A DNA stretch of 63,706 nt, filler included, from Asterionella formosa (lineage: Eukaryota): the NCBI GenBank assembly GCA_002256025.1. It is 28 parts of 28 records of this genome, joined end to end, with 100 filler letters (N's around TTAATTAATTAA, not from the genome) between each part and the next. Parts side by side here need not be neighbours in the genome. Positions count along the whole stretch, not along the records: positions 12,648 to 13,696 come from NKIB01004693.1; 27 more parts are not named here. One strand, written 5' to 3'. The translations under genes and the position numbers were made by a program. The notes beneath the pieces were generated by a model, which worked only from the letters and a program-made list of their open reading frames with translations, was not told where the DNA came from and did no database searches. Each line of letters starts with the position of its first letter. Within the stretch, counting starts at the first letter, position 1. Below are positions 1 to 57,570 of the stretch, one piece after another.

Positions 1-1050
1 TTGCATAGTTTTGAACACGCTCATTATACGGCACATCCTGTGTATACTAATATCAATTTTGATTATACATAATTCAAATATATACAATGCATGATGAGTT
101 CATAGTTTTCCACGACCTGTTGAGCTTGTTTTGTGTCAATTCTTGTACCTACAAGTCAGTGGCTGATTAAATTGAGCCCCTTAATAAACGGGAGTCATCA
201 CCAATTTTTCAAATGGTCGAAATCATACATTTATGTATATAGACATATTGACCAAAATTCATATGGCCTACCGGTAGTATTGTATAATTGCTGGTAATTA
301 CTTCCATCATGGAAATACCACAATAGTGCAGCGAAAATCTGAATATGCTCATGTGTTTAGGATCATTTGATCATATTTTTAAGATCGATTGATCATGATT
401 CTTGAAAATAAATGTTGATTGTTCATTTTCTCATCAACGACACCGTTCATCATATGATCAATATGTTATGATCAAAGTTATAGGATAAACGAATCTAAAT
501 TCATTGATTAAAGATCATAGTTTATACCGGAGTAGTCGTTGCTCATGCATGCAACCCCTTCCTCCCCTGTATACAGTACGGAAGTGATAACTCCCAAGCT
601 ACCAAATTTTTATGTCTTGTAAGAATTATCGCAGCATGCAAGCATACATGACTCCTACTGGTATATACAATGCGGGAGTGATGACCACCAGACAACCAAT
701 CCTATAGGTCCTGTAGAATTATCGCAATATGGCCGCATATCTAATGAAAGGGCGGGAGGAGTCATCCATGCTGCACCTGTAAAGTATGAAATATGGAAAT
801 GATCAAATATAGCTAGTCTACTCAAGGAGCAGTGCATCATATATGCCCAGTTATTTTAATTCCTATGAAATCTCTTGATCTGTTCTGCGCTTTTTCGCTA
901 CAATTGTTTTCATTGGCTGTTTTACTGGACAGCATTCGAATTGATTGTGCTTTGAACGAAGCAATGATCAAAGTCCACCCCATTGCAGAATGGTGAGTCT
1001 CACAACTAAGTATCAGCCAGTCGATTAAAATTGTACTGTCTTTTGTGCAC

Positions 1051-1150
1051 NNNNNNNNNNNNNNNNNNNNNNNNNNNNNNNNNNNNNNNNNNNNTTAATT
1101 AATTAANNNNNNNNNNNNNNNNNNNNNNNNNNNNNNNNNNNNNNNNNNNN
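1051..1150. other. Artificial contig-joining linker (first of 27)
   Basis: N44-TTAATTAATTAA-N44 (stops in all six frames) recurs between contigs of 1050, 1049, 1048 and 1047 bp and two of ~16.9 kb. Confidence 0.99.
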
Positions 1151-1391
1151 TACAGTTTGAGTGGTGGGATGATGACACATGATAACAAATGTTTGATTCC
1201 TTCGTCGGAGACGAATGTAGCTGATGACAACGAGTTAGTTTTGTCAGGGTTCAACATCATCGCGCACATTTTCGCTATTCCATAGTATCCTATTTCACCA
1301 ATTCTGTATTTGTGGGGATTCGTCATTGAAAGAACCACATCAGGTAAGGGTATAGTTTGACTTACATTGGTTGACTGCTGGAAGAGCTCAT
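1151..1391 (-). CDS. 5' part of an unknown spliced gene (MSSSSSQPI/IGEIGYYGIAKM...), truncated by contig end
   Basis: ATG at 1391; a GTAAGT...TACAG intron at 1365-1304 joins in frame to the 1099..1338 ORF. No family recognised. Confidence 0.4.
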
Positions 1392-3157
1392 GATGGAAAC
1401 AAAGTCTAGAGTTTGCTCGACTCCAAGTAGATTGACAATGGGATGAAAATAAATTGATTTGATGATCCTTCGTTCTACAGTATACTACCTGTTACCAGTA
1501 CCTGGTACCTGGTACCTTGTAACAAGCGAATACATAAAATCGAGAGATAACAGGACGAGTTCAGCCCTCGTGCCATTCCTGAACCCGGATGAATGCACCA
1601 GTAGGTTAGGGCTAGGGGTAGGGGAGCGATGCACAGAGTCGTTCGTTCGACAATGACAAAAATTGAGTTTAGCTACCGGTACTTACTACCCGGTACCAGA
1701 ACCAGGTTCAGGTACCAGGGAAGGTCCAGTAAAACACGTTTTTTACCTGAAAAAAAGAATAACAAAGCTAAATATCTCGATTATCGGACGGTCCTGTAAT
1801 CGAGATATTTTGGCTTTATCTATCTGCTCATAAGCGAAACCGTGTCCCACCGGAACTTCCTGGTTCTCAACCAGGTACATACCAGATATTTTAATATGAG
1901 GATCACGAGCGAGCGACTGTTCCGATCGCAGCCCCAAGAAAACACTCAGCTTTTGGCATGGCTGTTTGTAAAGCAACCCCTGGTAAGAAGAAAGAAAAAA
2001 AATAGAATTGATTACTAGACTACAGATCATGATGGCAAAAGGGTCCGGCAGACAGCAGCAAATCAATCCAACCACCATCATTCCATAGATACCAGCTAAC
2101 ATAACTTGATATATGCTATCATTACATCTCCATTAATCCACAATAAATGCACATACTACGATCATGACAATTCCATTCCACGCACTTTTGAAACTGACTT
2201 NNNNNNNNNNNNNNNNNNNNNNNNNNNNNNNNNNNNNNNNNNNNTTAATTAATTAANNNNNNNNNNNNNNNNNNNNNNNNNNNNNNNNNNNNNNNNNNNN
2301 GGCATTTATGATGGCTTTCGACGGGACCGCCTGGATTCGAGGAGACGATATTACTAAAGTCGAGCAATAGGCATGAGAAAAACTTTTTTTGCGCAGTGGC
2401 TGACTCGATTCTTGCTTTTCTTCAAAATCATACCTGCCGTTAGTAACACCCATTTTTGTTTGGAAACAAGAGTGACTACCGGAACTAAGGTTCATGTGCG
2501 ATGCAGAGGTTCTCCAGTTTTTACTACCTAGTGTTTCAGTTAGTGTTCGTTAACTCTTGCATTACACCTATCCATATACTTTAAACTGTGCATGGCGATG
2601 GCATCAACCCCTTGTTGCCACTGGTCCAAGAATAGATGGGCAAGGTAACTTGAGAACACTGTACTGGTGCCAGGGGGGTACCTAAAATGAAGTAGGTCGG
2701 TCTACCAATGTTGAATTTTATTCGTCATGTATCTACGTATGGCTGATATCATTTGTTTGTTGTTTATCGTCGTTGAGTTATTGGCAGCGTCTTGTCGTCG
2801 CCTACGGTACCGGTACCAGGTACCCAGTCAGCCATCACTACATCACCATCATACGATATGTACCGGCATCTGGCTTTGTAAAAGTCATCCAGGAGGCAGT
2901 ACATCCATCGTCCGTAATAAATATATGTGCTGCTGCTGCACCATAACATATGGTATACCTATCTACATATACTGTTAAATATATAAGAATTTATATTTTG
3001 AAGTATAGGAAGTGCATTTGCTTTATTATTCATTGCGCTTTATTATTAATTTATCATCACTCCTTTCTATCACCAAACAAATAAATATACAAATCATTGA
3101 TCTCGACTCGTCGTTGTCCGTGACTTTGACATTGAAAAGCATAGCTTGTCCTCCCAA

Positions 3158-3350
3158 ATGGAATTCAATCAAGCCGGCGTTCCGCAAGTTGGGGCTGTCA
3201 TCCCAGGCACCAATCCAGCCACTTCGGCATGCTTCCACGCGGATGGTGTTCATTTGTTTGTGGCTTCCGAAGCCGATAGTCGCCTTCGAGTGATTGATTG
3301 TCAAAAGGGACTTTCAGAACAACCTGCGATTCGTTGCGAGAGGGAGGGAG
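3158..3350 (+). CDS. WD40-repeat protein, WDR82/Swd2-like, N-terminal fragment
   Basis: ATSACFHADGVHLFVASEADSRLRVIDCQKG resembles the first WD40 blade of WDR82/Swd2; runs into contig end. Confidence 0.5.
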
Positions 3351-3450
3351 NNNNNNNNNNNNNNNNNNNNNNNNNNNNNNNNNNNNNNNNNNNNTTAATT
3401 AATTAANNNNNNNNNNNNNNNNNNNNNNNNNNNNNNNNNNNNNNNNNNNN

Positions 3451-4010
3451 CCAATATTGATGAGCCAAATGTTGATGATGATTTTATAGCGATTTCTGGG
3501 GAGAGTGAAGACAATGGTGGAGCAACATCTGCCGCTTATGCTAATTTTTCTGGTTCAAGATTTCCTCGACCTATGGTGTCCCCTCGATTTAGAGATAAGG
3601 CGCGCAGTGTCAAACAATACTGGGCCTGTTGAAAAAGTGCTTCTCTTCTTTCGACACAGTTGCTTCACAAGGCTACTCGAACTGATACTGATAACCTGCA
3701 GCAGCAACAACAACAGCAGCAACAACTGCAGCAACAGAACATGATGAACATGATGATGATGTCAATCATGGCATCATTGTTGAATCAGCATGGGGTATCT
3801 CAAACAACCACCTCCACTGACAGTGCCAATCCCACTCAGGCAATTATGAATTCAATTATTGCTTCAAACATGATTTCAATGCAGCAAACAATACAAAGCC
3901 AAAATCCAACCTCGACAGCAGGTGCCAATGCACAACAAACTTTGTCTGCCTCAACTCAATGTCAAACACCAAAAAACAACAGTGGTAGCAGTAGTAGTGA
4001 TGATGAATAA
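3451..4010 (+). CDS. C-terminal part of a Q/M-rich ORF convergent on the Harbinger transposase; probable accessory ORF of the element
   Basis: PolyQ and NMMNMMMMSIM tract; stop lies 77 bp from the transposase stop; one in-frame TGA near 3630. PIF/Harbinger elements typically carry two ORFs. Confidence 0.35.
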
Positions 4011-4087
4011 CAACCTTAAATTAATTCATTCTAATATAATGTGAAAGAAGTGGTGCTAAATAATCATGAAGGAATAATTTAGCACCA

Positions 4088-4500
4088 TTACATGGCATAT
4101 CTATTTGCATTCCTATTCAAATAGGGCATATACACTGAAGCAATTTGGTTCTGACCAACTTTGCTAGCACGAAAGTTGTAGAGCAATACAATCATTTGGA
4201 GAATTAATTTTCTCTCACCTTTTTCTTCATAACGAAATTTGTATTTGATTCTCGGAAATGATCCCTGAAGGCATCGCATTCCCCATTCCGACAGCTGTCG
4301 GATGGAGGTGGCTTGGCGATTCATACCAAATCTTTGTCGAGGATTACCATTTGCATCAACATTGTTTTGATGTGATTTCAACATTGCATTTGATTTTTTA
4401 GATGCAAATGCTGAATCCACAACTACTTTTTTGCCTGTATCCCTGTAAACTGTTTCAATCTGATCATAGATCGATGACCAAATTGCCATGGTGGAGTCAT
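4088..4500 (-). mobile_element. PIF/Harbinger DDE transposase (DDE_Tnp_4-like), C-terminal half
   Basis: Motifs VVVDSAF, NRQATSIRQLSEWGMRCLQGSFPRI and LLYNFR match the second Asp and the Glu region of Harbinger transposases. Confidence 0.85.
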
Positions 4501-4600
4501 NNNNNNNNNNNNNNNNNNNNNNNNNNNNNNNNNNNNNNNNNNNNTTAATTAATTAANNNNNNNNNNNNNNNNNNNNNNNNNNNNNNNNNNNNNNNNNNNN

Positions 4601-4875
4601 ACTATGAGAATTCCTGTAGGAAAGGATGTGTCGAGCATACACATTAGGATGATGTGGTATGTCGAGCATCAACAGGGGAGGGTGTCAGAATGTGTCTGTT
4701 AGGCTGTTGATGTCGACAGGTGTCCGAAGACTAGGTAGTCTGAGGAATGTCTAAACGGAAATAGACAGGATTTATATAGCAGAAGAATCTGCAGACGAGC
4801 GGCGTGAGAAAGATCTTGACCGGTCATTCCAGGGCAGTACTGGAGCGCGCTAGAGTAGCGCCATATATTTCAACA
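4601..4875 (+). mobile_element. 3' end of an LTR retrotransposon (copia-like): PPT plus LTR 4683-4875
   Basis: Purine tract GGGGAGGG directly before TGTCAG (4683); ends TTTCAACA (4875), giving TG...CA termini like the 27964 copia LTR. Confidence 0.6.
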
Positions 4876-5109
4876 TAGGTTGAGATGCACAACATGCCGG
4901 TTCTGGTACCAGGTACCAGTAGCTTAGTAGCTACTACTATTACCTACTAGTATACCGGTAGCATCGTAACAACATGCATGTCATGATCATTGTCTAAGCA
5001 TACCTGGTACCGGTATTAGCTACTGCACCGGGTAACAGCATTTAGGTATGACATTATGATGCAGTAAGTACCAGTATGAAGTCATGAAACGAACCTCGTA
5101 CATAGCTAA

Positions 5110-12547: not shown

Positions 12548-13189
12548 NNNNNNNNNNNNNNNNNNNNNNNNNNNNNNNNNNNNNNNNNNNNTTAATTAAT
12601 TAANNNNNNNNNNNNNNNNNNNNNNNNNNNNNNNNNNNNNNNNNNNNCAAAAACTTGCCACCAACATCAGATGTATCGATATCATCGTGCGTCCGACGAA
12701 ATATGGACGATGCGACTACATGAATACCTCGAGAAGACAAGCAATCCAACAATCAACCGCATCCGTTAGGCAAAGAATCGCTACTGGCGTCATCGCGGAA
12801 CTGATTTCGCTTCAAACCGGTCATGATGGACGACGATTGGCATGGTGAAAGGTGAATTGCCGGAGTCCACTTTTCAGGAGACGAACAAAAACGAGGTGAA
12901 TTCTAGATATAAATTATTAGAATCTGAATAGTATATAAAAAGGTTTCCTTAAGTAGACCCCTTGCCGATTTCGGCAATCCCAGGGCTGGAAAACCGAGGG
13001 GCAGGTGGTGTCTGTTGTCTTGCCAAAATGCGAACACATAAAATATATATAAAATATATTTTAATGATGGGCAATACCGGACCTTTGGCAATTTTGGAGG
13101 TGACGATAGGAAATATATGAAATATATTTAATAAGATGGGCAATAATAGTAAGCAAAAAATCACATTTATGCTTTATTTGTAGGCAGTA

Positions 13190-13505
13190 GGTAAGCGAAT
13201 GACGCGACGATAGCTCGAGCGGGAATTGCCTCAACAATACCCTTCTCGGCGGCTACTTGCCTTCTCGTATACATGTGTATTCGGGTGGGGTGGCGCGAGT
13301 AGGTTGACCGTACGAGTGGCGCCCCCGGCGCTGCGAGCCTCGAACACATGTATACTCGCAGGCAAGAGACCACCTCGGGCGTGTAATGCCTTCAGGGGGA
13401 TCGGTCTGTCTGACAACTTCGACTTATGCATCCCGGTATTTTCTCGCCCAAAATTAGCAATGCTACTTACTGTGGACCTTTACTTCACCCAGTCCTCTGC
13501 TGTGG
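13190..13505. repeat. Dispersed structured element, copy 1
   Basis: 40-nt core 13292-13331 is 38/40 identical to 57212-57251; enclosed by a long stem (GTATACATGTGT 13267-13278 / ACACATGTATAC 13344-13355). Confidence 0.7.
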
Positions 13506-13556
13506 TTGTCTAGCTGTTAGAGCCTTGACCTACAGGTATCCTCCAGTCAACTCAAG

Positions 13557-13696
13557 ATGGCGAAAATCAAATCATTGACGAAGAAGAAACCAAAGAACGT
13601 CAGCATCACGTTGATTCTAGTGATTTTTATTTCCCTGTGCTTTGCCATGCTTGCCACTGCCATCTATATGCTTCATGCACAGATGTCCACTCATGA
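13557..13696 (+). CDS. Type II membrane-anchored protein, N-terminal fragment
   Basis: Basic N-terminus followed by one hydrophobic helix (ITLILVIFISLCFAMLATAIYML). Confidence 0.45.
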
Positions 13697-14292: not shown

Positions 14293-14945
14293 CCAGGTAC
14301 CCTGTATACCTCAGCCACTGCTTGTACTGGCAGTAATCTACGTATCAGGACCCCAGGAGAGTGCCAGCTACCGATACCTGGTACCTGGTACCAGGTACTC
14401 AGATTCCAAGAGCTACGGACATACTATCTACATAAGAGTGCTGGTACCAGGTACCAGGTACCCGATAGTCAAGCCGTTGACCAGTGTAAATGCTGTGGGA
14501 GTCTAACTGGTACCTGGTACCAGGTACCGTCGATAGACTTTTCCTCACCGTTAAACAACGTTATTGAGCGGAACTCCCTCTCCGCACGAATCAAAAGGAT
14601 CTACATGAATTGTCGCTCAATGTAGAATTGTACACGTTCCCTGTCCTAATCTGTACTCTGGAACATCATGCAGCACCTTCAAGCAAAAAAGGATTTATTC
14701 TTTGCTTCACAGCCAGCGTAAAATCATAAATAGAATTGTGTGCACCTCACATTTTTGTTCATTGACCTCGTCTAAACCATGACAAACAAAGAAACCAATC
14801 GTTCCTATGACCTTGTGGAAGACACGGAAGCCGCCTATGTTGACANNNNNNNNNNNNNNNNNNNNNNNNNNNNNNNNNNNNNNNNNNNNTTAATTAATTA
14901 ANNNNNNNNNNNNNNNNNNNNNNNNNNNNNNNNNNNNNNNNNNNN

Positions 14946-17753: not shown

Positions 17754-19184
17754 TCAAGGAATAATAACACGCATTGTCACTGATGCTGCACTTAACCCCC
17801 AAAACAGTTCAAGTTGATCCGCAGTCAACAAGTCCTCTCCCATCACTCGTTCAAATTTCCACCCCAAATGCGAGTGACAAAAACGGCAATAGGCAATTGT
17901 CCACGAGTATCCAGGGAACCAACTATCTTTCGTTTCCTTACCACCAGTGTACCATAAATGTTGTTCAGAAACGGCCCGTAATGTGATTGTTTGATGAATC
18001 ACTCCATATTCGTTCACATACGCTCCTGACGTTCCTTCAGAACCAGCGACGGTAAACATATCTGTAGCAGAAGATAACTTGGTACTGCATAGTTTGCACA
18101 AAACATATGTTTGCTGTCGTTCTTGTTCTACCACTTTGTCATAAATATACCGTAGCCTCTCAACAGTGCCACCGGTTTTCAAAATGTATAGCTTGTCATG
18201 TTCTGACAGAGCCATATTGGAGGCCATGTAAAAGGAAAACGCCATTGGCTCGTCAGATGGTGGATTCAGATTCCAAGGCATTCTCAGCAGGACCGACTTG
18301 ATCTGGTCGACCAACCTCCATGGCCACACCATCCGATAGCAAAAGGAAGGAATAGCTGTCATCATAGACAAGGACGCCATAATGCCATCTTGACGCTGTA
18401 GACTGGATGATTGGGAACACATTGGCCTTTGAATGGGTGGTCGCTTTAATTCATCTTCAAATATTTCTTGTATTTGATAGAATTTCAAACCTACCAGGTC
18501 GTCGTCATTGTGGTATCTGCCATCTTGATCTGCAACGCCGCCTACAATACGACATCGTCTCGTTCCCAACGCAGTCACAATAAGTTCGTCATATTCATCC
18601 ACAACTTCTTCGTCACCATGTGTATACGTAACGGTCACAATGGTTCCAACACGTCCCAACAATGGGTCTCGTTCTATGGACGAGTCTCTTCGAATTCCAT
18701 TTTCATTCAATGGAATTGGAGGTTCGTCGTCGTTTACCAACAAACGTTGGTCTATAACATGCAAGCGAGATGCCCTCCTCGTCCAGCTTGATCGTTGACG
18801 ATGCGACTGGACACGAGTTGGAATGTGTGTGAAAATTCCAATTCGCACCTCCTTCCCCACCTCTATTAGTTGGCGAACATACTGGGCCCATTGTCGATGG
18901 ACCAGTCGTAATGGCAGCGTGTTTCCTGGAAAGACCACAACTCCTGGGAGTTGGAGGACAGGGAGCGTTGTTGTTGTATGATCAGTGACGACCCATCGAT
19001 GCAATAAAATGTCTTGTGAAACAAAAAGTGAATGAGAAGCGCCAGGTAAGTAGGAATGATGCGAATAATTGGGACTGGAGTGTTGGTGTTGTGGTAAGGC
19101 GCTGGTACCACCATCGTCTAGATTCATCATGACTTCGTCGTGTTGATCCTCGCCTTCTATCTCTCCTTGATGATTTGTCAGCAT
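17754..19184 (-). CDS. CRBN: Cereblon homologue (LON-N domain plus CULT domain)
   Basis: LPVLQLPGVVVFPGNTLPL (LON-N); CKLC...AYVNEYGVIHQTITL...SWFPGYSWTIAYCRFCHSHLGWKF (two zinc CxxC pairs and the tri-Trp pocket). Intronless, 476 aa. Confidence 0.93.
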   Translation of the reverse strand: MLTNHQGEIEGEDQHDEVMMNLDDGGTSALPQHQHSSPNYSHHSYLPGASHSLFVSQDILLHRWVVTDHTTTTLPVLQLPGVVVFPGNTLPLRLVHRQWAQYVRQLIEVGKEVRIGIFTHIPTRVQSHRQRSSWTRRASRLHVIDQRLLVNDDEPPIPLNENGIRRDSSIERDPLLGRVGTIVTVTYTHGDEEVVDEYDELIVTALGTRRCRIVGGVADQDGRYHNDDDLVGLKFYQIQEIFEDELKRPPIQRPMCSQSSSLQRQDGIMASLSMMTAIPSFCYRMVWPWRLVDQIKSVLLRMPWNLNPPSDEPMAFSFYMASNMALSEHDKLYILKTGGTVERLRYIYDKVVEQERQQTYVLCKLCSTKLSSATDMFTVAGSEGTSGAYVNEYGVIHQTITLRAVSEQHLWYTGGKETKDSWFPGYSWTIAYCRFCHSHLGWKFERVMGEDLLTADQLELFWGLSAASVTMRVIIP

Positions 19185-27963: not shown

Positions 27964-30900
27964 TGTCAAGAATATTAGCCCGAGTCACATGGATTGTGGA
28001 TTCGCTTGTAATCAAACGAGTCGAATAATGCATTGCCACGTCAATCAGCTGTCTAACGAGATCAAAGATTGAAGATTTCTATGGAAATGTTAAGTGGAAA
28101 ATCGAGGAGAGTCTTTGAACGGCTTTGCAGGAAGCAAAGATGCATGGAAAGGAAACATTTAGTTTAGCTTATAATTTAATTTGAGTTTTAGATTATCAAC
28201 CGAGGAAACAGTGTGTTAATTGACAGGAAGGTCAATAAGTCTATCTAGCAGGAAGGCTGGAAGCAGGGACAAGAAGAGAGAAAGTAAGAGGTACTAGGTA
28301 GTACTACGATCACGTAAGAGTCTACGTGAAGAGAGACCCAGCTCGCAGGAAGGAGTACGGACCATTTCAACACGCTTTAAAGCGGATAGGTTTGAAAGGG
28401 TACTCAAGATGGGAATTGACGACGAATCGTCAGGAGTGCGGTTGCCAACATTTGATGGTAACGATGCCAAGTGGCACATTTGGAAAGCGAAGTTTGTGGC
28501 CTATGCCTGCTACAAAGGTTTTGAAGGAATCCTAAATTGAGATGAAGTATCACCAGGTGAGAGAGATTCAGCTGGAGTGAAGATTGTTCCGAGCGACAAC
28601 GATGAGAAGCGTGCGAAACGAAATAATACGGTTGCATATGCAAGTTTGATTATGGCATGTCAGAGTGGACCATTTGGATACGTAAATGCTGCCAGAAGTG
28701 AAGAGTTCCCCAATGGAAATGCGAAGGAAGCGTGGGACAAGTTAGTTTCTACGTGCGAGTCAAGTAATATGGCAAATGTGATTGCCTTGTCAGGTCAGTG
28801 GACAAAATGCACGATTAACGAGAATGAGAACCCCGACATTTGGTTTGTGGAGTTGGATAGAATTCGAGAACGATTGAGCCGTACGAGCTCCGCAATTTCG
28901 GATGGTGCCTATGTGGCTCACGTTGTCAACAACCTACCGGAAGTCTACAAGAGTTTGGTGGTTGGAAAATTTGGTCTCGCGAGCTCCGAGCTCACGATCC
29001 AAGAGGTCAAGAAGAATGTACGCGACTACCGGTATTATTACAATTTGTATGTGCGTGACAAAACCAAGACAAGTAAGAATAGCGAGCAGGCCTAGCGAGC
29101 AGGCCTTCTTTTCAAAAAGCAAGTTTAATGGAGACTGCAGGAAGTGTGGCAAGTATGGCCACAAGGCAGTTGATTGCCGAAGCAAGGGCAATACTACAGA
29201 AAAGAGAGAATTAACTCCCGAGCAACGGAATAAGAGAAAGAATGCGAAGTGTTATAATTGCCAGAAGATGGGGCACTATGCCAGTGAGTTCAACAATCAA
29301 CAAAATGTACCAATCAAACAGAAGGGAGAAGACGCCAACACCACTACGCAAGGAATGTTCGTGGTGACGTGTATTGAGGCAAGGTACAACGAAGAGGTAA
29401 ATCATACGTGCATGCATAAGGACCATTGGCTACTAGATAGTGGTGCTACGGTACATATATGCAATGATGAGCGCATCATGGAGGACAAGCGCGCAGTGCA
29501 TGAAACTGTTCTTGTGGGAAATGGCGCAGCAATTGTTGCGACCGTATCAGGCACGGTGACCCTTACGACGACAGACAAAGGAAAAGTGTTGAAACTCACC
29601 AATGTGCTCTATGCACCGGAGTTCACGCAGAGCATCATCAGCATTTCGAGAATTATTGACAAGGGAATCAAAGTTATGTTTGACGATGATAAGATGACAA
29701 TCAGAAACAACAACGGATTTTTGATCTGCAAACGTGATGAAACGAGGACAATTGGTGCAATGTACCATGTGCAAGGAACGCCTATTCTAAAGGAAATGGT
29801 GTTGGAGGTTGAACAAGAAAGCGAGAAGCCAACACAACAATCTATCGACTATGATAAAGAAGACAAGAATGAATGGACGAAAGTCGACGAAAAGAAGTAA
29901 ACGACGAAAGCGAAAGATGAAACGATCAAGAAAAGAAACGCGAACGAATATAATGATGTGATTGTGGAAATAAATGAAGCGCACGAAATGCTTGGACATG
30001 TGGGGGAAAAATGTCTTCGTGAGACATCGAAATTATTTGGGTGGAAACTTGTTGGAAATTTAAAGGTGTGCGCAGGATGCACAGCAGCCAAGGCGAAAGC
30101 ACGCGCAGTACCCAAGATGACGCAAGAGAAGGCTACGACACCAGGAGAAAGACTGTCTATTGATATTAGCGGACCCTACTCAAAATCCGCTGTGGGAAAT
30201 CAGTATTGGGTGATGGCCGTGGACGATTATACAAGGAAACGCTGGAGTTATTTTATCAAGAAGAAAAGTGACATCAGAACTGTCATTGGAGCGTTACTCA
30301 CAAAACTTGCCGGTGCAGGACATAAGACTAAATTTTTCCGATGTGATGATGCAGGTGAGAACTCCAAGCCACTAAAGAAAGTATGTGAAAACCAAGGTGT
30401 CAAGATGGAATTTACGGCACCTCATACTCCGCAGCACAATGGTGTTGTGGAGCGTGGTTTTGTTACAGTGCGTCAGAGAGCACTTGGTATGATGCTAAGT
30501 GCGAAGTTTACAGATGAATATCAGGGGCTATTGTGGGCAGAAGCTGTACATACTGCGACAAGATTGACAAACAGTACAGTGAATTCAGTGACTTAGAAGA
30601 GTCCTGATGATGTGTTCTATGGAGAAACGAATACAAGGCGGCCCTACAAGCTCTACAGGCAATTTGGACGTGTTGGTTGGGTTACTATAAGAGAAGGTGT
30701 CAAGAAATTAGATGCACGTTCCATCAAGTGTGTCTTTTTGGGATACTCAGATGACCACTCTCAAGATACGTATTGCATGTATAATCACGAGACAAATACA
30801 TAAAACCAGTCATCAAGCAACCAACAGGATACGGAGATATCAGTACGAGAAGATAATGAAGAATTGCATGACGATTTTTATGACAAGTTCGAACCTCGAG

Positions 30901-32968
30901 AAGTGTCCGATAATGAAGATGAAGATGATGACAAGCAAGAATTGGGGAGGAAAACTGAACAATCAACTAAGATAGATGGTACTACGAAATACGAAGATAC
31001 AGGTACCAATACCCCAATTGTGAAGGCTAAACGTGCGGAAAGTGCTCAGTCTAAGCAAGCGAAGTTGGCACGTGAAATGCGAAGATTGGACTCATCGTTC
31101 AATCCTACGAGTACGAAAATTGTGAAATTTTCAGGAGATACTGAGATGCCTGGTGTTATCAAGGAGGATGACATGAAGGAAGTTACAAAGAATACACAGA
31201 TGAATCTTGTGTACAACGCAAGTCTGGCTTCTGATCTAGGATTGCCAACAAGCTACAATGAAGCAATGGCAAGACCAGACAAGAAAGAGTGGATCAAGGC
31301 GATCAACAAAGAATATGAAAACTTCCAGTCGAGAGGAGTGTGGAAAGTTGTCAAGCGTGACACTGTTAAAAAGCGAACACTAAAAACGAGATGGGTGTTT
31401 CGAATTAAAGAAGATGTGGTAACCGGGAAGAAAATTTACAAGGCAAGATTGGTCGTGAAGGGATATGAGCAAATCCCAGGTATTGATTTTACTGAGACAT
31501 TTGCTCCAGTCGCAAGCGATGCGACAATCAAAACGGTAGTAGCAGTGACGATGTATAACGGTTGGCGAGCAGAGGCTATAGATGTGGAAGCAGCATTTCT
31601 AAATGCTGATGTCGATGAGAACATTTAAATTGAGCCCCCTCAAGCTTTGATCAGAGTCGATTCCGATACACATGTTTGCAAACTTGTGAAGGCTACGTAA
31701 GGGATAGTACAAGCTCCACAATGCTGGTCCAGGACGTTTGCGAAATGTGTCACCAATAAACCAGGTATGACAAAGAGCAAGATCGACCCTATGTTATTTA
31801 TGCACCGAAACAAGGATGGACAAATTGATGGTCTACTTGTTAATTACGTGGTTGACGGTATTGTATGTGGGACTCCAAGTGCAGTGGAGTATATGAAAAA
31901 TGTTATCAAGGAAGATTTCAATATTACCAAGCAGGGTATTGTACAGAAACACCTAGGAGTGGAATATGCTTGGAAAGAGGACAAGTATGGTGAATACTGG
32001 GAGGTGCAGATGCAGAAATTTCGTATGCAACTTCTACACGAATACGAGAAGCTGACCGGTATGAAAATTCAGTCATACACAACGCCGGGCGTACCAGGAA
32101 AGACATTGAACAAAAATGACGAAAAAGTCATTATGGAAGGAGAATATCGAAAAATTGTGGGCAAGTTATTATGGTCTACAAAGAAGGATTCGCCGGACTG
32201 TGCAAATGCGGTTCGGGAATTATCGGCTCATTTAAGCTGCCCAGGTATTTAAGCTGCCCAGGTGAAGAACAATGGCATACAGTGGCAAGAGTCATTGGTT
32301 ACCTATCCAATATGGAGGATAGAGTTCTCAAGTTACGTAAGCCAAAAGAGTTAAGAGTCATTGCCTACATGGACAGTGACTCGGCTGCTAATAAGGTTAA
32401 CAGGAAGAGCGCGACTGGCTATCTTGTAACTATTGGCGGGGCACTTATCAGTTGGCAGTCGAAGGGACAACAAACGGTTACGCTGTCCAGCACGGAAGCC
32501 GAGTATGTGGCGATGTCCCAGTGTGGACAAGAGATCAAGTTCATAGCAATGCTACTGAATGAGGTTACTGGTGGTAAGGTCATGTTACCAAGTATCCTAC
32601 GAGAAGACAATACAGGAGCTATTTTTATCGCGAAGAATCAGCAAATCGGAACCAGGACAAAACACATTGATAATAAGTATCATCATGTAAAGGACATGAT
32701 TGAGGATGAAGAATTGAGGTCGGAAGATAATTTTGCGGACATTATGACCAAGAACGTGAAGGAACAGATTCATACGAGATTGTCCGAACCAGTTCAGAGT
32801 GGAACGATGTTACAGCCTCTTGAGCGTGGCAATGGGGAGGATGTCAAGAATATTAGCCCGAGTCACAAGGATTGTGGACTCGATTGTAATCGAACGAGTC
32901 GAATATTGTATTGCCACGTCAATCAGCTGTCTAACGAGATCAGAGATTGAAGATTTCTATGGAAATGT
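27964..32968 (+). mobile_element. Near full-length, inactivated Ty1/copia retrotransposon (gag-PR-IN-RT-RH)
   Basis: 5' LTR from 27964 (end inferred at 28372); gag ATG 28409 (PTFDGNDAKWHIWKAKF); CCHC knuckles; WLLDSGAT; HEMLGH..CAGC; integrase DISGP/RCDDAGE/NGVVER; RT KARLVVKG; RNase H; PPT GGGGAGGA; 3' LTR from 32842 to contig end. Several stops and frameshifts. Confidence 0.96.
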
Positions 32969-33630: not shown

Positions 33631-34084
33631 ATTCCAGATCTAAATTTATTCACGACATAGGACATGTAAATTTCCTGGCATTTACGCATAGACCATATCT
33701 CTTCCCATGCTTTGCTCCTTGATGAGTGATTTTGTGGGCACCTGACAACATGATTGAAGTCCTCGTTGAAACGAGCACACCTTGGACACTGGCCATCATT
33801 GTGTTTCTAATACTTCCTCCGTTGTTTCATTGTTGCAAACAAATCGAATTCCAGTTTGAAAAGCATCATCGGTTGCGAAATGCCAGTTATCCGTGCTCCT
33901 GCTCAATGTCTTGCCAGCCAATCCACCATTTCGAAGATTCTCTTGGTATCCCATCCATTCCAAGCGCATATATGTTGTTCTAAAGATCCCTGATAACTAG
34001 CTTCTCGTATTTGCATTGACACGTGTCCTGTGATCCACTGACCTTGAACAAACAAAGTTGCTCTGTGTCTTGGAGGTAGAATAT
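33631..34084 (-). repeat. 454-bp near-identical copy of LINE segment 37423-37876
   Basis: Direct alignment at offset 3792 with a few substitutions. Confidence 0.9.
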
Positions 34085-36926: not shown

Positions 36927-37876
36927 CTAATCCTGGATTATTGGCCTGGATAGACGTTTTAACTTTCTTAATCCATAGTAGTTTTTGAGGTATGGTATGA
37001 TATGATTTGCGATTCTGACAAGGAAGTTGAAAGAGAAACTTGTCAGACAATGAGACTCTGTCCGCCTGGGAATACAGCTGTGTGATGATTCGATCAGCAT
37101 ATCGATCTGTTTGTCGTCTGTGACACCATAGAGGAACTGATTGCGTGATGTCCATTGCCCAATTCCAAAGTTCCAAAGTTTATTAATGAGCTTGCTAGTA
37201 GTCCATTGGTCATCGATAGTTGGGTTAGAATAGAGAAATCTTTCTTTACAATAAGACGCATTGGCCTTCCCCCATTTGACGCTAATACGGCCCCGTATTG
37301 CCTGGTCCCAACCTATGTCTTGTTGATCTATAAAGACCTCAAAGGTTGTATACCCTATGGTGTCGCTTGGAGGTGGAATATCACCCTCCCACCAAACTAT
37401 CCCTTCTGTGACCCACTTCTCAATTCCAGATCTAAATTTATTCACGACATAGGACATGTAAATTTCCCGGCATTTACGCATAGACCATATCTCTTTCCAT
37501 GCTTTGCTCCTTGATGAGTGATTTTGTGGGCACCTGACAACATGATTGAAGTCCTCGTTGAAACAAGTACACCTTGGACACCGGCCATCATTGTGTTTCT
37601 TATACTTCCTCCGTTGTTTCATTGTTGCAAACAAATCGAATTCCAGTTTGAAAAGCGTCATCGGTTGCGAAATGCCAGTTGTCCGTGCTCCTGCTCAATG
37701 TCTTGCCAGCCAATCCACCATTTCGAAGATTCTCTTGGTATCCCATCCATTCCAAGCGCATATATGTTGTTCTAAAGATCCCTGATAACTAGCTTCTCGT
37801 ATTTGCATTGACACGTGTCCTGTGATCCACTGACCTTGAACAAACAAAGTTGCTCTGTGTCTTGGAGGTAGAATAT
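36927..37876 (-). mobile_element. 5'-truncated non-LTR (LINE) ORF2 C-terminus
   Basis: WNGWD...VDW, then CPRC...EDFNHVVRC (CCHC, zf-RVT-like), QQDIGWDQAIRGRISVKW and WTSRNQFLYG; one internal stop. Confidence 0.75.
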
Positions 37877-38504
37877 CGATCACGTAAAGATGCCACTGAA
37901 TAAATGGATGATAACGAATTTTTTTGAAAGAAAAAATCTTCAAAAGTTTTGGTATATCTTGAGCAGCAGTGTATGGCGTGAATTCACTTGTCAATTTTTC
38001 ATCGAAATTGCTTTTCGCAATTTATATCTTTCTCATTTTTACTGTCTTCAGCAATCTTTTGACACGGGCAGACATTAGGACTTCCTTGGGTATGCTGTTG
38101 CATCCTCCATCCCATTGTTGTGCATGCAAATCTAGGATGGCTGATCGATATTGATTGAGTACACTATATCCAATTGGCTTGTCTGAAATCCAATCAGTGT
38201 TGGAAATTACAGATTCATAATCATCCTTTGAAAATTGTTCTTCCACAGGTTTACATTGACCTGGTCAGCCTCTGGGTCGCTGATGACGTCTTGATTGATA
38301 CCATAAAAAGCCAAAGAACTTTTCTTCTGTCACTGTTGTAGATGGGATGCCATCAACCTCGGACGGAAAGGCATAACGAGAAAAATCAAGGAATTCTGCC
38401 ATTTTTCTTCTATAGGCAAGAATGGTGTTTTCCGGACAACCAGCTTTATCGTCTGCTGCAACCTGTTTTGCTTGAGCTGCGAATTTTCCACTTGTGTATG
38501 ACAT
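37877..38504 (-). pseudogene. Crypton-like (Ndc10/GCR1-related tyrosine-recombinase element) N-terminal region, truncated
   Basis: Single frame with two stops: ENTILAYRRKMAEFLDF...VTEEKFFGFLWYQSRR...QYRSAILDLHAQQ...DEKLTSEFTPY. The catalytic domain is absent. Confidence 0.6.
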
Positions 38505-38700: not shown

Positions 38701-39730
38701 TGGGAGGACGTTCCTTGTTGTAATAATTATAAATTAATATTACCCAATTTCTATACTATGAGCCAGTGAATTGAGACTTTTAACAAGGTGGGTTGAATAA
38801 ATATTGATGAAGTTATAGGGGAGTCAGTATTGGAAAACCATCATTACCAAATGGTGTGGTTTTGTTATGAAATGACATAGTGACCTCATCTGGAGGACGT
38901 TCCTTGTTGTATTAATTATATATTAATAGTACCATATTCTATACAATGGGCCAGTGAATTGAGACGTTCAACAAGGTGGGTTGATTGACTCTTGATGAAG
39001 TTATAGGGGAATCAGTATTGGTAAACCATTATTACCAAATGGTGTGGTTTTGTTATGAAATGAGACCTCATCTGAAGAACGTTCCTTGTTGTATAAATTA
39101 AATATTGATAGTTTCTTATTCTATACTATTGGACAGTGAATAGAGACGTTCAACAAGGTGGGTTGATGGAGCATTGATGTAGTTATAGGAGAATCAGTAT
39201 TGGTAAACCATCATTACCAAATGATCTGGTGTGGTTATGAAATGACATAGTGACCTCATCTGGAGGATGTTTCTCCTTGCATAAATGACAGATTGATATT
39301 CCCTTATTCTATACTATGAGCTAATGAAATTAGAAGTACAAAATGGTGTGTTGATTAAATATTGATGAAGTTACAGAGGAATCAGTATTGGTAAACCATG
39401 ATTACCAAATTGAGTGGGGTTTTTGTTATGATATGACATAGTGACCTTATTGGGAGGATGTTCCTTGTTGCTGTATTAATTATATATTGATATTACCCTA
39501 TTCTATACTATGAGCCAGTGAATTGAGACGTTTAACAAGGTGGGTTGATTTAATATTGATGAAGCTATAGGGGAGTCAGTATTGGAAAACCATGATTACC
39601 AAATGGTCTGCGTGGTTTTGTTATGAATTGACATAATGACCTCATCTCGAGGATGTTCCTTGTTGTATGAATGACATATTGATAGTACCTTTTTCTTTAC
39701 TCAGTGTCGATGAATTGAGCCGTTCATCAT
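38701..39730. repeat. Tandem array, ~189-bp unit, ~5.5 copies
   Basis: Units start near 38701, 38891, 39073, 39261, 39451 and 39648 (GGAGGAYGTTCCTTGTTG...CAGTATTGG.AAACCAT.ATTACCAAAT...GACCTCATC). Confidence 0.92.
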
Positions 39731-41139
39731 GGTGTAGTCGCATCGTCCATATTTCGTCGGACAAACCAGGAAATCGATATATTTGATGTTGGTAGCAAGT
39801 TTTTGCTCCTGTCATGCATGTGATGATGCTTAACGGATATTCTCCCGGTACCGGTAGTCATCTAATCCACATACGTCCGTGGTACTAAAAACGACCATGC
39901 ATGGTTTACTAAGCTAAACTTTAACGCTTACTTTGATCACGTTATAATATTATCTCTGTAGACTCGGTATTGTTTTTACGAGACCAGAATGTTAAACTTT
40001 ATCGTTCACATATTCATTGATTTTACGTACCGTATGCCGGATTTCGTCCTCACAATTATAGTTCTCACTCTATCTTGCCTGCCTTTGCTCTATTCGGGCT
40101 TGCAATAGGCAACGTTCGTCTTTTTTTGATACCATCGTCTGCTGCTTGTTATGCTAGTTGAAGCGGATCGGTGAGTACAACAGTGAAACACTGAATGTGG
40201 GTTGAAGATCGTATTTATCGACTTTCCGATTTGATTGCTTCCGTGGTTTGTTTTGATTGCTTCCGTCGTTGTTTGTCGTTCCGCACTGTCGGTTTGTTTC
40301 GATTGTATATATCTACATAAGAACCAATGCATTCATCAATGACTAGCTACTCATTGAAGATGTGGTATTGTGCCGTTGTTGATCGTATTTGTTGATTTGT
40401 ATAGTCGTTGACAATGATGTCAATATTGCCGCCAAGCAATGCATTTCTTGTACTAACGCGCTTCATATCAGAGACTACGTATATTCAGCTAGAAAGAGTC
40501 GATAGTGCTGGAGCAGCCTGGCGATTATACTCAATCAGAATGGATTGGAATGGAATGATGATCAGGGTTGTTTGGTGGGAGGAACGAGGACTGTGGGCGG
40601 AAGGACTGCAACTTGTGGCAGCCTACTACAGGATACGCATGGTAGCAGCAACCAGACCATCTATCCAACATAACGATGCAGGTCAAATTGGGTTCAGCTT
40701 TTTCCATTCTTATTTCGTTTCTTGATTGTGTGGTGATGGATATTCAATTGCCTGTGTAAGTAGTACTACAATGTCACAATGCATACATCTCCATTGAAAC
40801 TCTTATTCTTTCTTACTTCATTTCTAACCCAAAACAATTTTTTCTATTTCTCATTTGATGCTACTTATTACATCGCATTTCATACTTTGGTTGCTCCAAA
40901 CATCATGTTCAATTTTCATTGATGTTGCATGTTACAATCATTCTCGTGTGTTTTACGCTTGTTGTACCAGCATCTCTATGCATATATTACCGTTATTCTG
41001 GTTGTCATGCTAAAATCGGCAATTTTATTGCCGAAAAATTCGATGTGCCCCATATTGCCCTTAAATTAAAATTACTTAGAGCCTAAAAATTACTTAGAAG
41101 TACCCGAATGGCAAGACAATAGCTGGAGCGGGAATTGCC

Positions 41140-41619
41140 AGGAGATTCTTTCTTGGTGCCACTTGTGCCTTCGTTGTTCTTGTTGTTCGGATGAGTGAAG
41201 CTGCCGTTTACAGCATCGCCTTTGTCGTTTGGATGAGTGTTCTTTTTCCTCTGCTTCCTTAGCTAAATGACAGAGGAAGAAGAAATCAAGATCACTACTA
41301 TCATCATTATCATCAAGTAAATCAAATGGTGACAGCATGATTCATGCAATGGTGTGTTTTTAATATAATATATAGTTTACCAGTAATTATATTTTATGTT
41401 GCTCATTATATTCGTGGAGGGATATACACATGATCTTTGCCAGCCAGGAGCTGCTGTTGAAGATCCATGTTACTCCATGATACAATGTGATCACAAATTA
41501 GTGATACAGTGACACTTTTGGAATGAATGAAATTCAGTTCAAATCGAGTTACCGTTGCTGATACATTTTCAAAATAATTCAAATTCCATGATACACGAAA
41601 AATTGGATAAGAACGGCCC
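41140..41619 (-). mobile_element. PIF/Harbinger end with a truncated transposase-like N-terminus (41338-41140)
   Basis: GATAAGAACGGCCC|TAA TIR ending 41619 with TGATAC repeats; ORF has an acidic start and RRHKWHQERISW. Confidence 0.5.
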
Positions 41620-56824: not shown

Positions 56825-57134
56825 NNNNNNNNNNNNNNNNNNNNNNNNNNNNNNNNNNNNNNNNNNNNTTAATTAATTAANNNNNNNNNNNNNNNNNNNN
56901 NNNNNNNNNNNNNNNNNNNNNNNNATTGAAAATATCGATGGTAGTTTGGCAGTCCAAAAACGGAGCAAATGAAATTGACAAAATATGTTTTATTTGATGG
57001 GCAATTGCAGGATTTAGTAATCCAAAAACTGTACGTATGAAATATTTGTTTCTTTAATATGAAGGGCAATTGCCTACTTCGCATCCAACATACAAACTAT
57101 GTAAAATAGGTTTTCAATGTTAACAGAAAGAGCA

Positions 57135-57570
57135 ATGTAGTGGCGAAAAGCGCGCCGATAGCTAGGCGGGAGGAGTCTACCTACTCCTAATCTTGTGTGC
57201 TCGGCTTGGGAGGCGCGAGTAGGTTGACCGAACAAGTGGCGCCCCCGGCGCGCCTCCCAAGCCTCGAACACAAGAATACTGACAGGCGGTCTCCACCCTC
57301 AGTCGTATCTTACCAGGTACCCCCTGGTACCAGTACCCTGGTACCTGGTACCTTCAGTAGCGGTGGGTGAACATATCTTACGGCTATATGTATAATATGT
57401 ATGCTCTCTGCCTACATACAGGATGTTAAAAGGTCTCGTACTCCTTCCCATCTGACGGATTCCTCTTATGTAGGACTTACCTGTTATACCACTAGTATTG
57501 TTATATTCTTTCTGCTGCTAGCCTTCGTGCTAGTTTTCGCTATTGACCTTACTCTGTCAATTCTCACTGT
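57135..57570. repeat. Dispersed structured element, copy 2
   Basis: Perfect 15-bp stem GGCTTGGGAGGCGCG (57203-57217) / CGCGCCTCCCAAGCC (57249-57263) plus TCTTGTGT/ACACAAGA around the conserved core. Confidence 0.7.

Follow-up and report, generated by a model that had tools for sequence, protein, structure and literature searches.

Among the described eukaryotic transposons, those closest in layout to the element reported here are the Helitron2/Helentron elements (HLE2), which carry a left terminal repeat and a right subterminal repeat placed directly upstream of a 3' stem-loop, show T-T insertion and contain internal tandem repeats in their non-autonomous forms (Bao and Jurka 2013, PMC3627910; Thomas et al. 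2014, PMC4067079; the HELIANO paper, PMC11417382). In the parts of these papers drawn on here, the inverted repeats of HLE2 measure 8–18 nt (PMC3627910, PMC11417382) and their palindromes 5–20 bp (PMC4067079, PMC3627910), and an 'HLE2-reverse' variant has its stem-loop at the 5' end (PMC11417382). Two further groups are relevant, again as portrayed in excerpts of the cited papers. Cryptons have terminal direct repeats of 4–6 bp, circular intermediates and no inverted repeats or hairpins, and their non-autonomous derivatives far outnumber the autonomous elements (PMC3212892). Replitrons, which encode a Y1 Rep protein of the HUH class and occur in algae and plants, have an 11-bp palindrome at the right end and move by copy-and-paste; their protein was not detected in diatoms (PMC10288648). 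Here we analyse a 63,706-nt stretch of DNA (the window) from the freshwater diatom Asterionella formosa (assembly GCA_002256025.1), in which an earlier note had singled out positions 13190–13505 as a candidate new non-coding RNA or single-stranded DNA recognition structure built around a nearly invariant 40-nt core. We find that the core is the tip, flipped and partly lost, of the terminal hairpin of a transposon; it is real and non-random, and it is not a new RNA gene.

As far as the excerpts go, the diatom element has the same order of parts as Helitron2/Helentron and HINE/DINE-1 elements, from the left repeat, through a non-coding body in which internal repeats are present, to the right repeat and a stem-loop; like HLE2, it forms a high-copy non-autonomous family whose ends are found joined head to tail. 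Unlike those HLE2, it has repeats of 32–35 nt instead of 8–18 nt, a hairpin of 165–192 nt instead of a palindrome of 5–20 bp, five phased G.A sites and a TCAGCA-like boundary, and no 5' hairpin was seen. With Cryptons (CryptonF/CryptonS) it has in common the abundance of non-autonomous derivatives and, putatively, joined ends and a fixed short motif at the boundary, and it differs from the members portrayed there by its 32–35-nt inverted blocks and its terminal hairpin. It also resembles Replitrons in having a right-end palindrome, the one reported for Replitrons being only 11 bp long, and perhaps in short direct repeats at or near the ends and in copy-and-paste movement. No such hairpin was evident from the titles and abstract openings of the papers that a full-text search on diatoms, Helitrons and hairpins returned. 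Its design is unusual and, as far as this limited search reaches, undescribed.

The window is a chain of unrelated contigs joined by runs of N and a TTAATTAATTAA spacer; most are of about 1.05 kb, and two are of 16.9 kb. One copy of the element, c1, lies on the contig at 12648–13696, and a second one, c2, on a separate contig at 56925–57971. The parts of these copies, and of a third partial one, are as follows.

12648–13395, + strand: copy c1 of the high-copy non-coding element; partial, the left end lying beyond the contig start
13040–13180, + strand: variable internal region, with two GATGGGCAAT boxes (13066–13075 and 13135–13144) in A/T-rich repeats
13196–13230, + strand: right subterminal inverted repeat (the 'upstream block'), directly before the hairpin; 30 of 35 positions identical to 41105–41139
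13237–13390, + strand: terminal hairpin of c1, rearranged
13245, 13264, 13280 and 13339, 13355, 13374: mismatch sites of c1, reading CTCG/TTCG on the + strand, which is CGAG/CGAA on the − strand
13288–13337, + strand: apex segment of c1, containing the core (13292–13331); its orientation to the stem is the reverse of that in the canonical form
13391–13395, + strand: right terminus TTCAG; c1 reads TTCAGGG, and its relatives TTCAGCA(AT)
13396–13696, + strand: single-copy flank outside the element, with a depth about 1000-fold lower
39733–41139, − strand: left part of another copy, with the inverted repeat 41139–41105 at its start; 39805–39733 matches the opening 73 nt of c1 with 89% identity
56946–57357, + strand: copy c2, of a diverged subfamily
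57144–57172, 57169–57314 and 57353–57357, + strand: block, hairpin and terminus TTCAG of c2
57203–57262, + strand: inner stem of c2 with the apex (core 57212–57251); apex inverted against the outer stem, descending arm missing
57315–57352, + strand: GGTACC-rich 38-nt insert between the hairpin and the TTCAG terminus of c2 (repeat family D7)

GGTACC-rich tracts occur as well at 12 further sites on many contigs of the window, for instance at 1497, 9666, 14373–14534 and 55029.

The right end of the element is visible as an abrupt change in abundance. Four public runs (X1, X3, X15 and X17, of which X1 is a DNA run) were mapped as contigs onto the c1 contig; the runs that contain the c1 stretch are mostly freshwater metagenomes. 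In X1, 36,369 contigs were placed, and the summed depth, which pools the contigs of all organisms in the run and is not a strict copy number, was 0.02–3.6 million over 12648–13417 versus 580–4,305 over 13418–13696. A step of about 1000-fold at one position is the end of a very abundant dispersed repeat, which agrees with the proposal in the earlier note that the feature belongs to a dispersed mobile family. Loose ends fall just behind 13395 in all four runs, and their agreement is low (0.4–0.57), indicating that the flanks vary from copy to copy. The two hairpins at 13440–13505 that the earlier note had counted as parts of the feature therefore lie beyond the element, in the low-depth flank; their stems are of 4 bp and are not homologous between the copies, and the feature ends at 13395 and not at 13505. 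Within the element, depth drops to 0.02–0.74 million over 13040–13180, a region that is variable among copies. It contains the paired upstream motifs noticed before, since GATGGGCAAT is found twice ahead of each copy (at 13066 and 13135, and at 56996 and 57061, the last with one mismatch); the boxes are present also in the metagenome loci described below. Tandem Repeats Finder returned only two short A/T repeats in c1, so its 'central repeats' are weak, and c1 contains no reading frame of more than 99 codons and none that is conserved. In the flank, 13389–13696 is covered by RNA contigs of two studies. Separately, a gene starts there with an ATG at 13558 (13558–13696, + strand), 160 nt past the element end; the N-terminus of the product is rich in lysine, and the hydrophobic stretch after it resembles a signal anchor.

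The sequences at the boundary are similar, not uniform. The hexamer TCAGCA (TGCTGA on the other strand) is found at the boundary of the L001 junction (see below), in L003 and in the loose-end consensus of X1, X15 and X17; the window boundaries deviate from it, with TCAGGG at the right end of c1 and CTGGCA (three of six positions) at the left end. After the terminus, the loose-end consensus continues as CAAT.., CAATT.. or CAAAA... If the end is taken as ..TCAGCAAT, the next base is T in L001, L003 and the X15 consensus and A in the X1 consensus, and in c1 TTCAG is followed by GGGG.

The core is highly conserved between c1 and c2, as had been claimed: 38 of the 40 positions are identical between 13292–13331 and 57212–57251, the differences being T/A and G/A, and a 27-nt pattern of the core has exactly two sites in the window (13297–13323 and 57217–57243), against an expectation of 0.00 from 100 shuffles. 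Each copy folds into a long stem around the core, whose arms do differ in sequence and yet pair in both. In the middle stem 11 of 12 positions are paired in c1 and 10 of 12 in c2, and in the outer stem 11 of 15 in either copy, one G-T pair included; the stem pairs of both copies are otherwise Watson-Crick. Between the copies, the two arms of the middle stem are identical at 8/12 and 10/12 positions and those of the outer stem at 6/15 and 7/15, so the core is indeed more conserved between subfamilies (38/40) than the stem arms (6–10 of 12–15). The upstream block, GCGAA..CGATAGCT..GCGGGA, is likewise common to both copies, with 34 of 56 alignment columns alike by hand count, and the third partial copy that had been proposed matches it at 41105–41139 (85.7% over 35 nt). 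The outer mismatch sites of c2 are not CGAG, from which we conclude that c2 is from a diverged subfamily that still retains the apex. Its inner stem is a perfect 14-bp stem around the apex (57203–57262; z −3.9 and −4.2), whereas the 50-nt core of c1 in isolation folds no better than shuffles (z +0.31 and +1.07).

Further copies came from scans of contig collections with the core pattern. Metagenome contigs yielded three loci (L001, L002 and L003), all from one sublineage and 85–93% identical to c1 over some 600–700 nt; scans of the genome-contig and viral-contig collections yielded 0 loci each, and nhmmer and blastn inside the window matched the family only at c1, c2, 39733–39805 and 41098–41172. 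In an alignment of c1, c2, L001 and L003, the outer and middle stems together comprise 27 pairs, and 79.6% of the cells are paired, versus 29.6–51.9% when the partners are slid. Four of the 27 pairs are altered on both sides and still paired, a number reached by 3 of 500 shuffles. The proposal that the stem is kept by compensating changes thus finds a thin confirmation: all four pairs set c2 against the other three sequences, so the test spans two lineages, because these searches found few further copies. In all, the stems conserve pairing and the apex conserves sequence.

The intact form of the hairpin is seen in L001 and L003, where it is a rod of 192 nt composed of five stem segments and five CGAG/CGAG sites. 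On the strand opposite to the + strand of the window, L001 has 10 CGAG and 0 CTCG, and L003 has 9 CGAG and 0 CTCG; the spacing of CGAG in L001 is mirror-symmetric (15, 12, 11, 13, 17, 12, 12, 12 and 15). This strand folds as a single rod in which the five CGAG/CGAG pairs form 2x2 internal loops, with a minimum free energy of −106.3 and −104.4 kcal/mol under RNA parameters, versus −83.1 and −82.7 kcal/mol for the other strand; with DNA parameters the values are −49.9 and −43.5, respectively. The CGAG/CGAG sites allow tandem G.A pairs on one strand and give pyrimidine mismatches on the other. The hairpin therefore marks one strand, a design that points to its use as folded single-stranded DNA. 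The conserved core corresponds to the apex of the rod and extends from its fourth CGAG to its sixth. In the window, the only spot dense in CTCG is 13155–13374, with six in 220 nt, and its sister motif CGAG averages about 0.5 per 220 nt.

Compared with this canonical form, the apex is inverted in both window copies. Over the 50 nt at 13288–13337, c1 has 100% identity with L002, though the match is to the other strand than in the flanks, and on the CGAG strand of the stem c1 shows five CGAG outside and three CTCG inside, and c2 two CGAG and one CTCG. Both copies keep the ascending arm, the tip and part of the return, in flipped orientation, and both are devoid of the descending arm; by our reading of the alignments, about 28 nt are lost in c1 and about 23 nt in c2, at breakpoints that differ and share only about 2 nt. 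The flipped apex and the lost arm explain why the two strands of c1 fold equally well (−68.9 and −68.8 kcal/mol) and why its core alone does no better than shuffles. The joint that places 13288–13336 on opposite strands was recovered in all four runs (24 contigs in X1, one in X3, three in X15 and eight in X17), and hence the inversion is not peculiar to this assembly. In X3 the contig with this joint has a depth of 23.3, close to the total of about 27 at the site, and thus the canonical orientation dominates there. Joints that skip 73–83 nt between the arms of the middle stem, representing copies without the interior, were found in X1, X3 and X15. Polymerase template switching in quasi-palindromes yields flips with loss of one arm, deletions of whole hairpins and block 'corrections', and c1 and c2 may well be two independent products of such switching. 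Additionally, L002 has at positions 115–118 GCGA in place of the TCTC of c1 (13264–13267), which makes one mismatch site perfectly paired, and L001 agrees with c1; this block looks like a one-step palindrome 'correction' instead of point mutations.

The right subterminal repeat, of 32–35 nt, sits immediately upstream of the stem-loop. In L001, the DNA after the hairpin opens with the reverse complement of this block (27 of 32 positions) and then runs into sequence that is 90% identical to 41138–40720 of the window. In our reading, L001 contains the junction of a right end with a left end, and position 41139 is the putative left end in the window. The 281 nt of L001 that run from the first block through the hairpin to the second block form, on folding, a single rod of about 240 nt, with −77 kcal/mol versus −41.0 ± 3.7 for shuffles (z −9.8). 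No 5' hairpin was seen, as neither the left end of the window copy nor that of L001 folded better than shuffles (z +1.16 and +0.69). The start of the c1 contig (12648–12720) matches 39805–39733 on the opposite strand, with 89% identity over 73 nt, as had been noticed before. The joined ends of L001 raised the idea of a tandem repeat or circular unit of 2.1 kb, which we discarded because the flanks past 13395 differ, as in a dispersed family.

From position 41139 inward there is 1.4 kb of element DNA, then a tandem array of 188-bp units and then the start of a Crypton-type gene, and the neighbourhood contains the following features.

37828–38504, − strand: fragment of a Crypton-type tyrosine-recombinase pseudogene, covering residues 1–225 of the 838-aa protein P0002, with two in-frame stops in the matching portion
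38716–39734: tandem array with a period of about 188 bp and five to six units, 67–90% alike, between the left part of the element and the Crypton gene start
33631–33930 and 37423–37722: 300-nt direct repeats, 97% identical and 3.8 kb apart, resembling a pair of long terminal repeats

Translated with the stops as X, the fragment is 93% identical to P0002 over residues 1–191, and P0002 contains the domains PF16787 (NDC10_II) and PF12550 (GCR1_C). The identification came from this protein search, since Pfam did not recognize the fragment itself even at E≤10, and no relatives of the Crypton protein were found in viral contigs. After residue 225 the gene is interrupted by DNA that the 300-nt direct repeats enclose; a 255-codon frame between them (36927–37694, − strand) had no Pfam match. 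The 16.9-kb contig is a nest of transposons, with a retroelement gag at its start, and the right part of the left-end copy is missing from it. The position of the pseudogene is suggestive of its product as a possible partner enzyme of the hairpin element.

At about even chances, we favour the reading that the hairpin is an end signal recognized as folded single-stranded DNA by a rolling-circle enzyme of the HUH class. The suggestion in the earlier note of a hairpin for an HUH or a tyrosine recombinase comes close to this; its hairpin part is borne out, and the enzyme class is something that we infer. The rod hairpin of about 190 nt forms the right end of a DNA transposon that is very abundant in this freshwater diatom and encodes no protein; according to this model, it would serve in recognition or termination at the element end. 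The stems would need only to pair, and hence could drift by compensating changes, and the apex would be a sequence-specific contact, nearly invariant between subfamilies. When two elements, or two ends, become joined, the block, hairpin and block would fold into the rod of about 240 nt. Judged by the order of the parts, the enzyme would most likely be an HUH transposase of the Helitron2/Helentron (HLE2) kind. Copies c1 and c2 would be damaged derivatives, arisen by two separate template switches within the quasi-palindrome at different breakpoints, and the copies with the whole interior deleted would be a companion product of the same process.

Several observations weigh against this reading. 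Pfam found no Rep/helicase domains (Helitron_like_N, PIF1) in 42 of the 43 window frames of at least 110 codons, nor TnpB/Fanzor domains, the window being a tiny sample of the genome. The sizes of the repeats and of the hairpin are off the HLE2 scale, the T-T site of HLE2 is unlike c1, where the terminus is followed by G, and the left ends lack the 5' hairpin of the Helitron2 type (z values above). The strand with the hairpin at its 3' end has CTCG/CTCG, and the strand capable of G.A pairs has it at the 5' end, which fits only the 'HLE2-reverse' layout. The fixed 6-nt boundary TCAGCA and the neighbouring Crypton gene would suit a tyrosine recombinase better. The apex may work in neither or in both orientations, or c1 and c2 may simply be dead. 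Finally, the depth values sum over every organism of a run, and c1 and c2, being on 1-kb contigs of a repeat, may be assembly chimeras, though their breakpoints share only about 2 nt.

A serious, though less probable, rival explanation is that the family is a non-autonomous derivative of a Crypton-type tyrosine-recombinase transposon, excised as a circle and integrated at the 6-nt core TCAGCA (TGCTGA on the other strand), in which the inverted blocks paired across the hairpin in the joined form might be the recombination site, maybe read in folded single-stranded form, as are integron attC sites and the attachment site of the CTX phage. In its favour, the gene fragment at 37828–38504 shares its strand with the left end at 41139, from which it lies 2.6 kb inward, and c1 matches, over its first 73 nt, the DNA that immediately precedes the array and the gene; the homology of c1 to this contig stops exactly at the array start, as expected of an internal-deletion derivative. 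The right boundary shared by L001, L003 and the consensus of X1, X15 and X17 is also what it predicts, and L001 has the right end joined to the left end through a single TCAGCA. Short direct repeats of 4–6 bp, circles and abundant non-autonomous derivatives are on record for Cryptons, but in the part of that paper used here the described members have neither terminal inverted repeats nor hairpins (PMC3212892). The two window boundaries, with CTGGCA on the left (3/6) and TCAGGG on the right of c1, fit poorly. Moreover, adjacency may be a matter of chance in a transposon nest, and the 3' part of the left-end copy, where a shared right end would lie, is absent. Mismatches that mark a strand are typical of enzymes acting on single strands, and tyrosine recombinases are such enzymes only exceptionally.

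The new non-coding RNA, ribozyme or guide or scaffold RNA that the earlier note had entertained now appears very unlikely, whether as a small RNA gene of the RNA polymerase III type with the GATGGGCAAT boxes, as a guide or scaffold RNA or as a hairpin precursor of silencing RNAs. The stretch is present in metatranscriptome contigs of two studies, and in X15 the depth is 961–5,052 over 13208–13382 versus 74–203 over 12788–13207 (excluding the repeat bin 13033–13067, with 13.5); X17 shows no such enrichment, though, and contigs from RNA libraries do not show transcription, strand, ends or level. Conserved boxes and an A/T-rich stretch precede the block in both copies, but conservation within the family is lowest in the region of these boxes. 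The guide RNAs of TnpB/Fanzor end at the right end of their element, as does the structure here, but the window frames scanned hold no TnpB/Fanzor gene. Some copies lack the apex and others have it in either orientation, c1 and c2 being rearranged and incomplete, and a sequence-specific RNA is unlikely because the same 50 nt are tolerated in both orientations relative to the stem; c1 also folds alike on its two strands. In agreement with the failure to match the feature by eye to signal recognition particle (SRP) RNA, RNase P/MRP, small nuclear RNAs or ribozymes, Rfam gave 0 matches at gathering thresholds over the whole window, and at E≤10 only chance-level matches over each copy (E 2.6–9.3), none of them on the core. 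ARAGORN detected 0 tRNA or tmRNA genes in the window, and c1 has no tRNA-like part. An SRP Alu domain, a loop E/sarcin-ricin motif, tRNA A/B boxes and a telomerase template were considered by eye; no tool supported them, and the repeat status and the inversion speak against them. Least probable of all, and hardly credible, is a cut-and-paste element of the foldback or miniature inverted-repeat type moved by a DDE transposase, with the long palindrome as its inverted repeats. L001 does have a palindromic centre flanked by inverted repeats, and the window contains one fragment of such an enzyme:

4091–4498, − strand: fragment of a Harbinger-type DDE transposase (DDE_Tnp_4)

However, the element is asymmetric, with the hairpin at one end and arms that share only the block of 32–35 nt, no target-site duplication is visible at the boundaries seen, and the ends are found joined head to tail.

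The protein domains of the window are eukaryotic (HECT, cereblon-like and copia-type retroelement). A copia-type retrotransposon at 28541–32950 (+ strand) comprises gag, zinc knuckle, Pol beta-barrel, integrase and RVT_2, its frames being in several pieces, and a cereblon-like protein at 17754–19184 (− strand) has LON substrate-binding and Yippee/Mis18 domains in one uninterrupted frame.

What is new here is an apex conserved across subfamilies, its inversion and loss, blocks that pair across joined ends and an adjacent Crypton gene. Elements of this kind mimic structured RNA genes, with their covarying stem and invariant loop, and can mislead screens for non-coding RNAs and break short-read assemblies. 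They also show how long quasi-palindromes survive and break, through flips, arm losses and deletions of the whole hairpin, and, if the favoured reading holds, they would offer a clean natural system for how single-strand transposases and recombinases read DNA structure versus sequence. A bolder proposal, which we hold to be rather unlikely, is that the giant hairpin is a recombination or replication site used in folded single-stranded form, with the G.A sites as strand markers and the apex as a protein-binding tip. If this were true and the Crypton recombinase were the enzyme, the site would be the eukaryotic equivalent of an integron attC site or of that of the CTX phage; if the apex inversions arose by hairpin-primed copying and not by accident, it would correspond instead to the flip/flop ends of the parvovirus type. 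Either case would represent a way of transposing that has not been described among eukaryotic elements. On the favoured reading alone, one of the major repeat families in a common diatom of fresh waters would possess an end signal of unusual size and design, about 190 nt long, in which five purine-purine mismatch sites follow at regular spacing and the tip is conserved.

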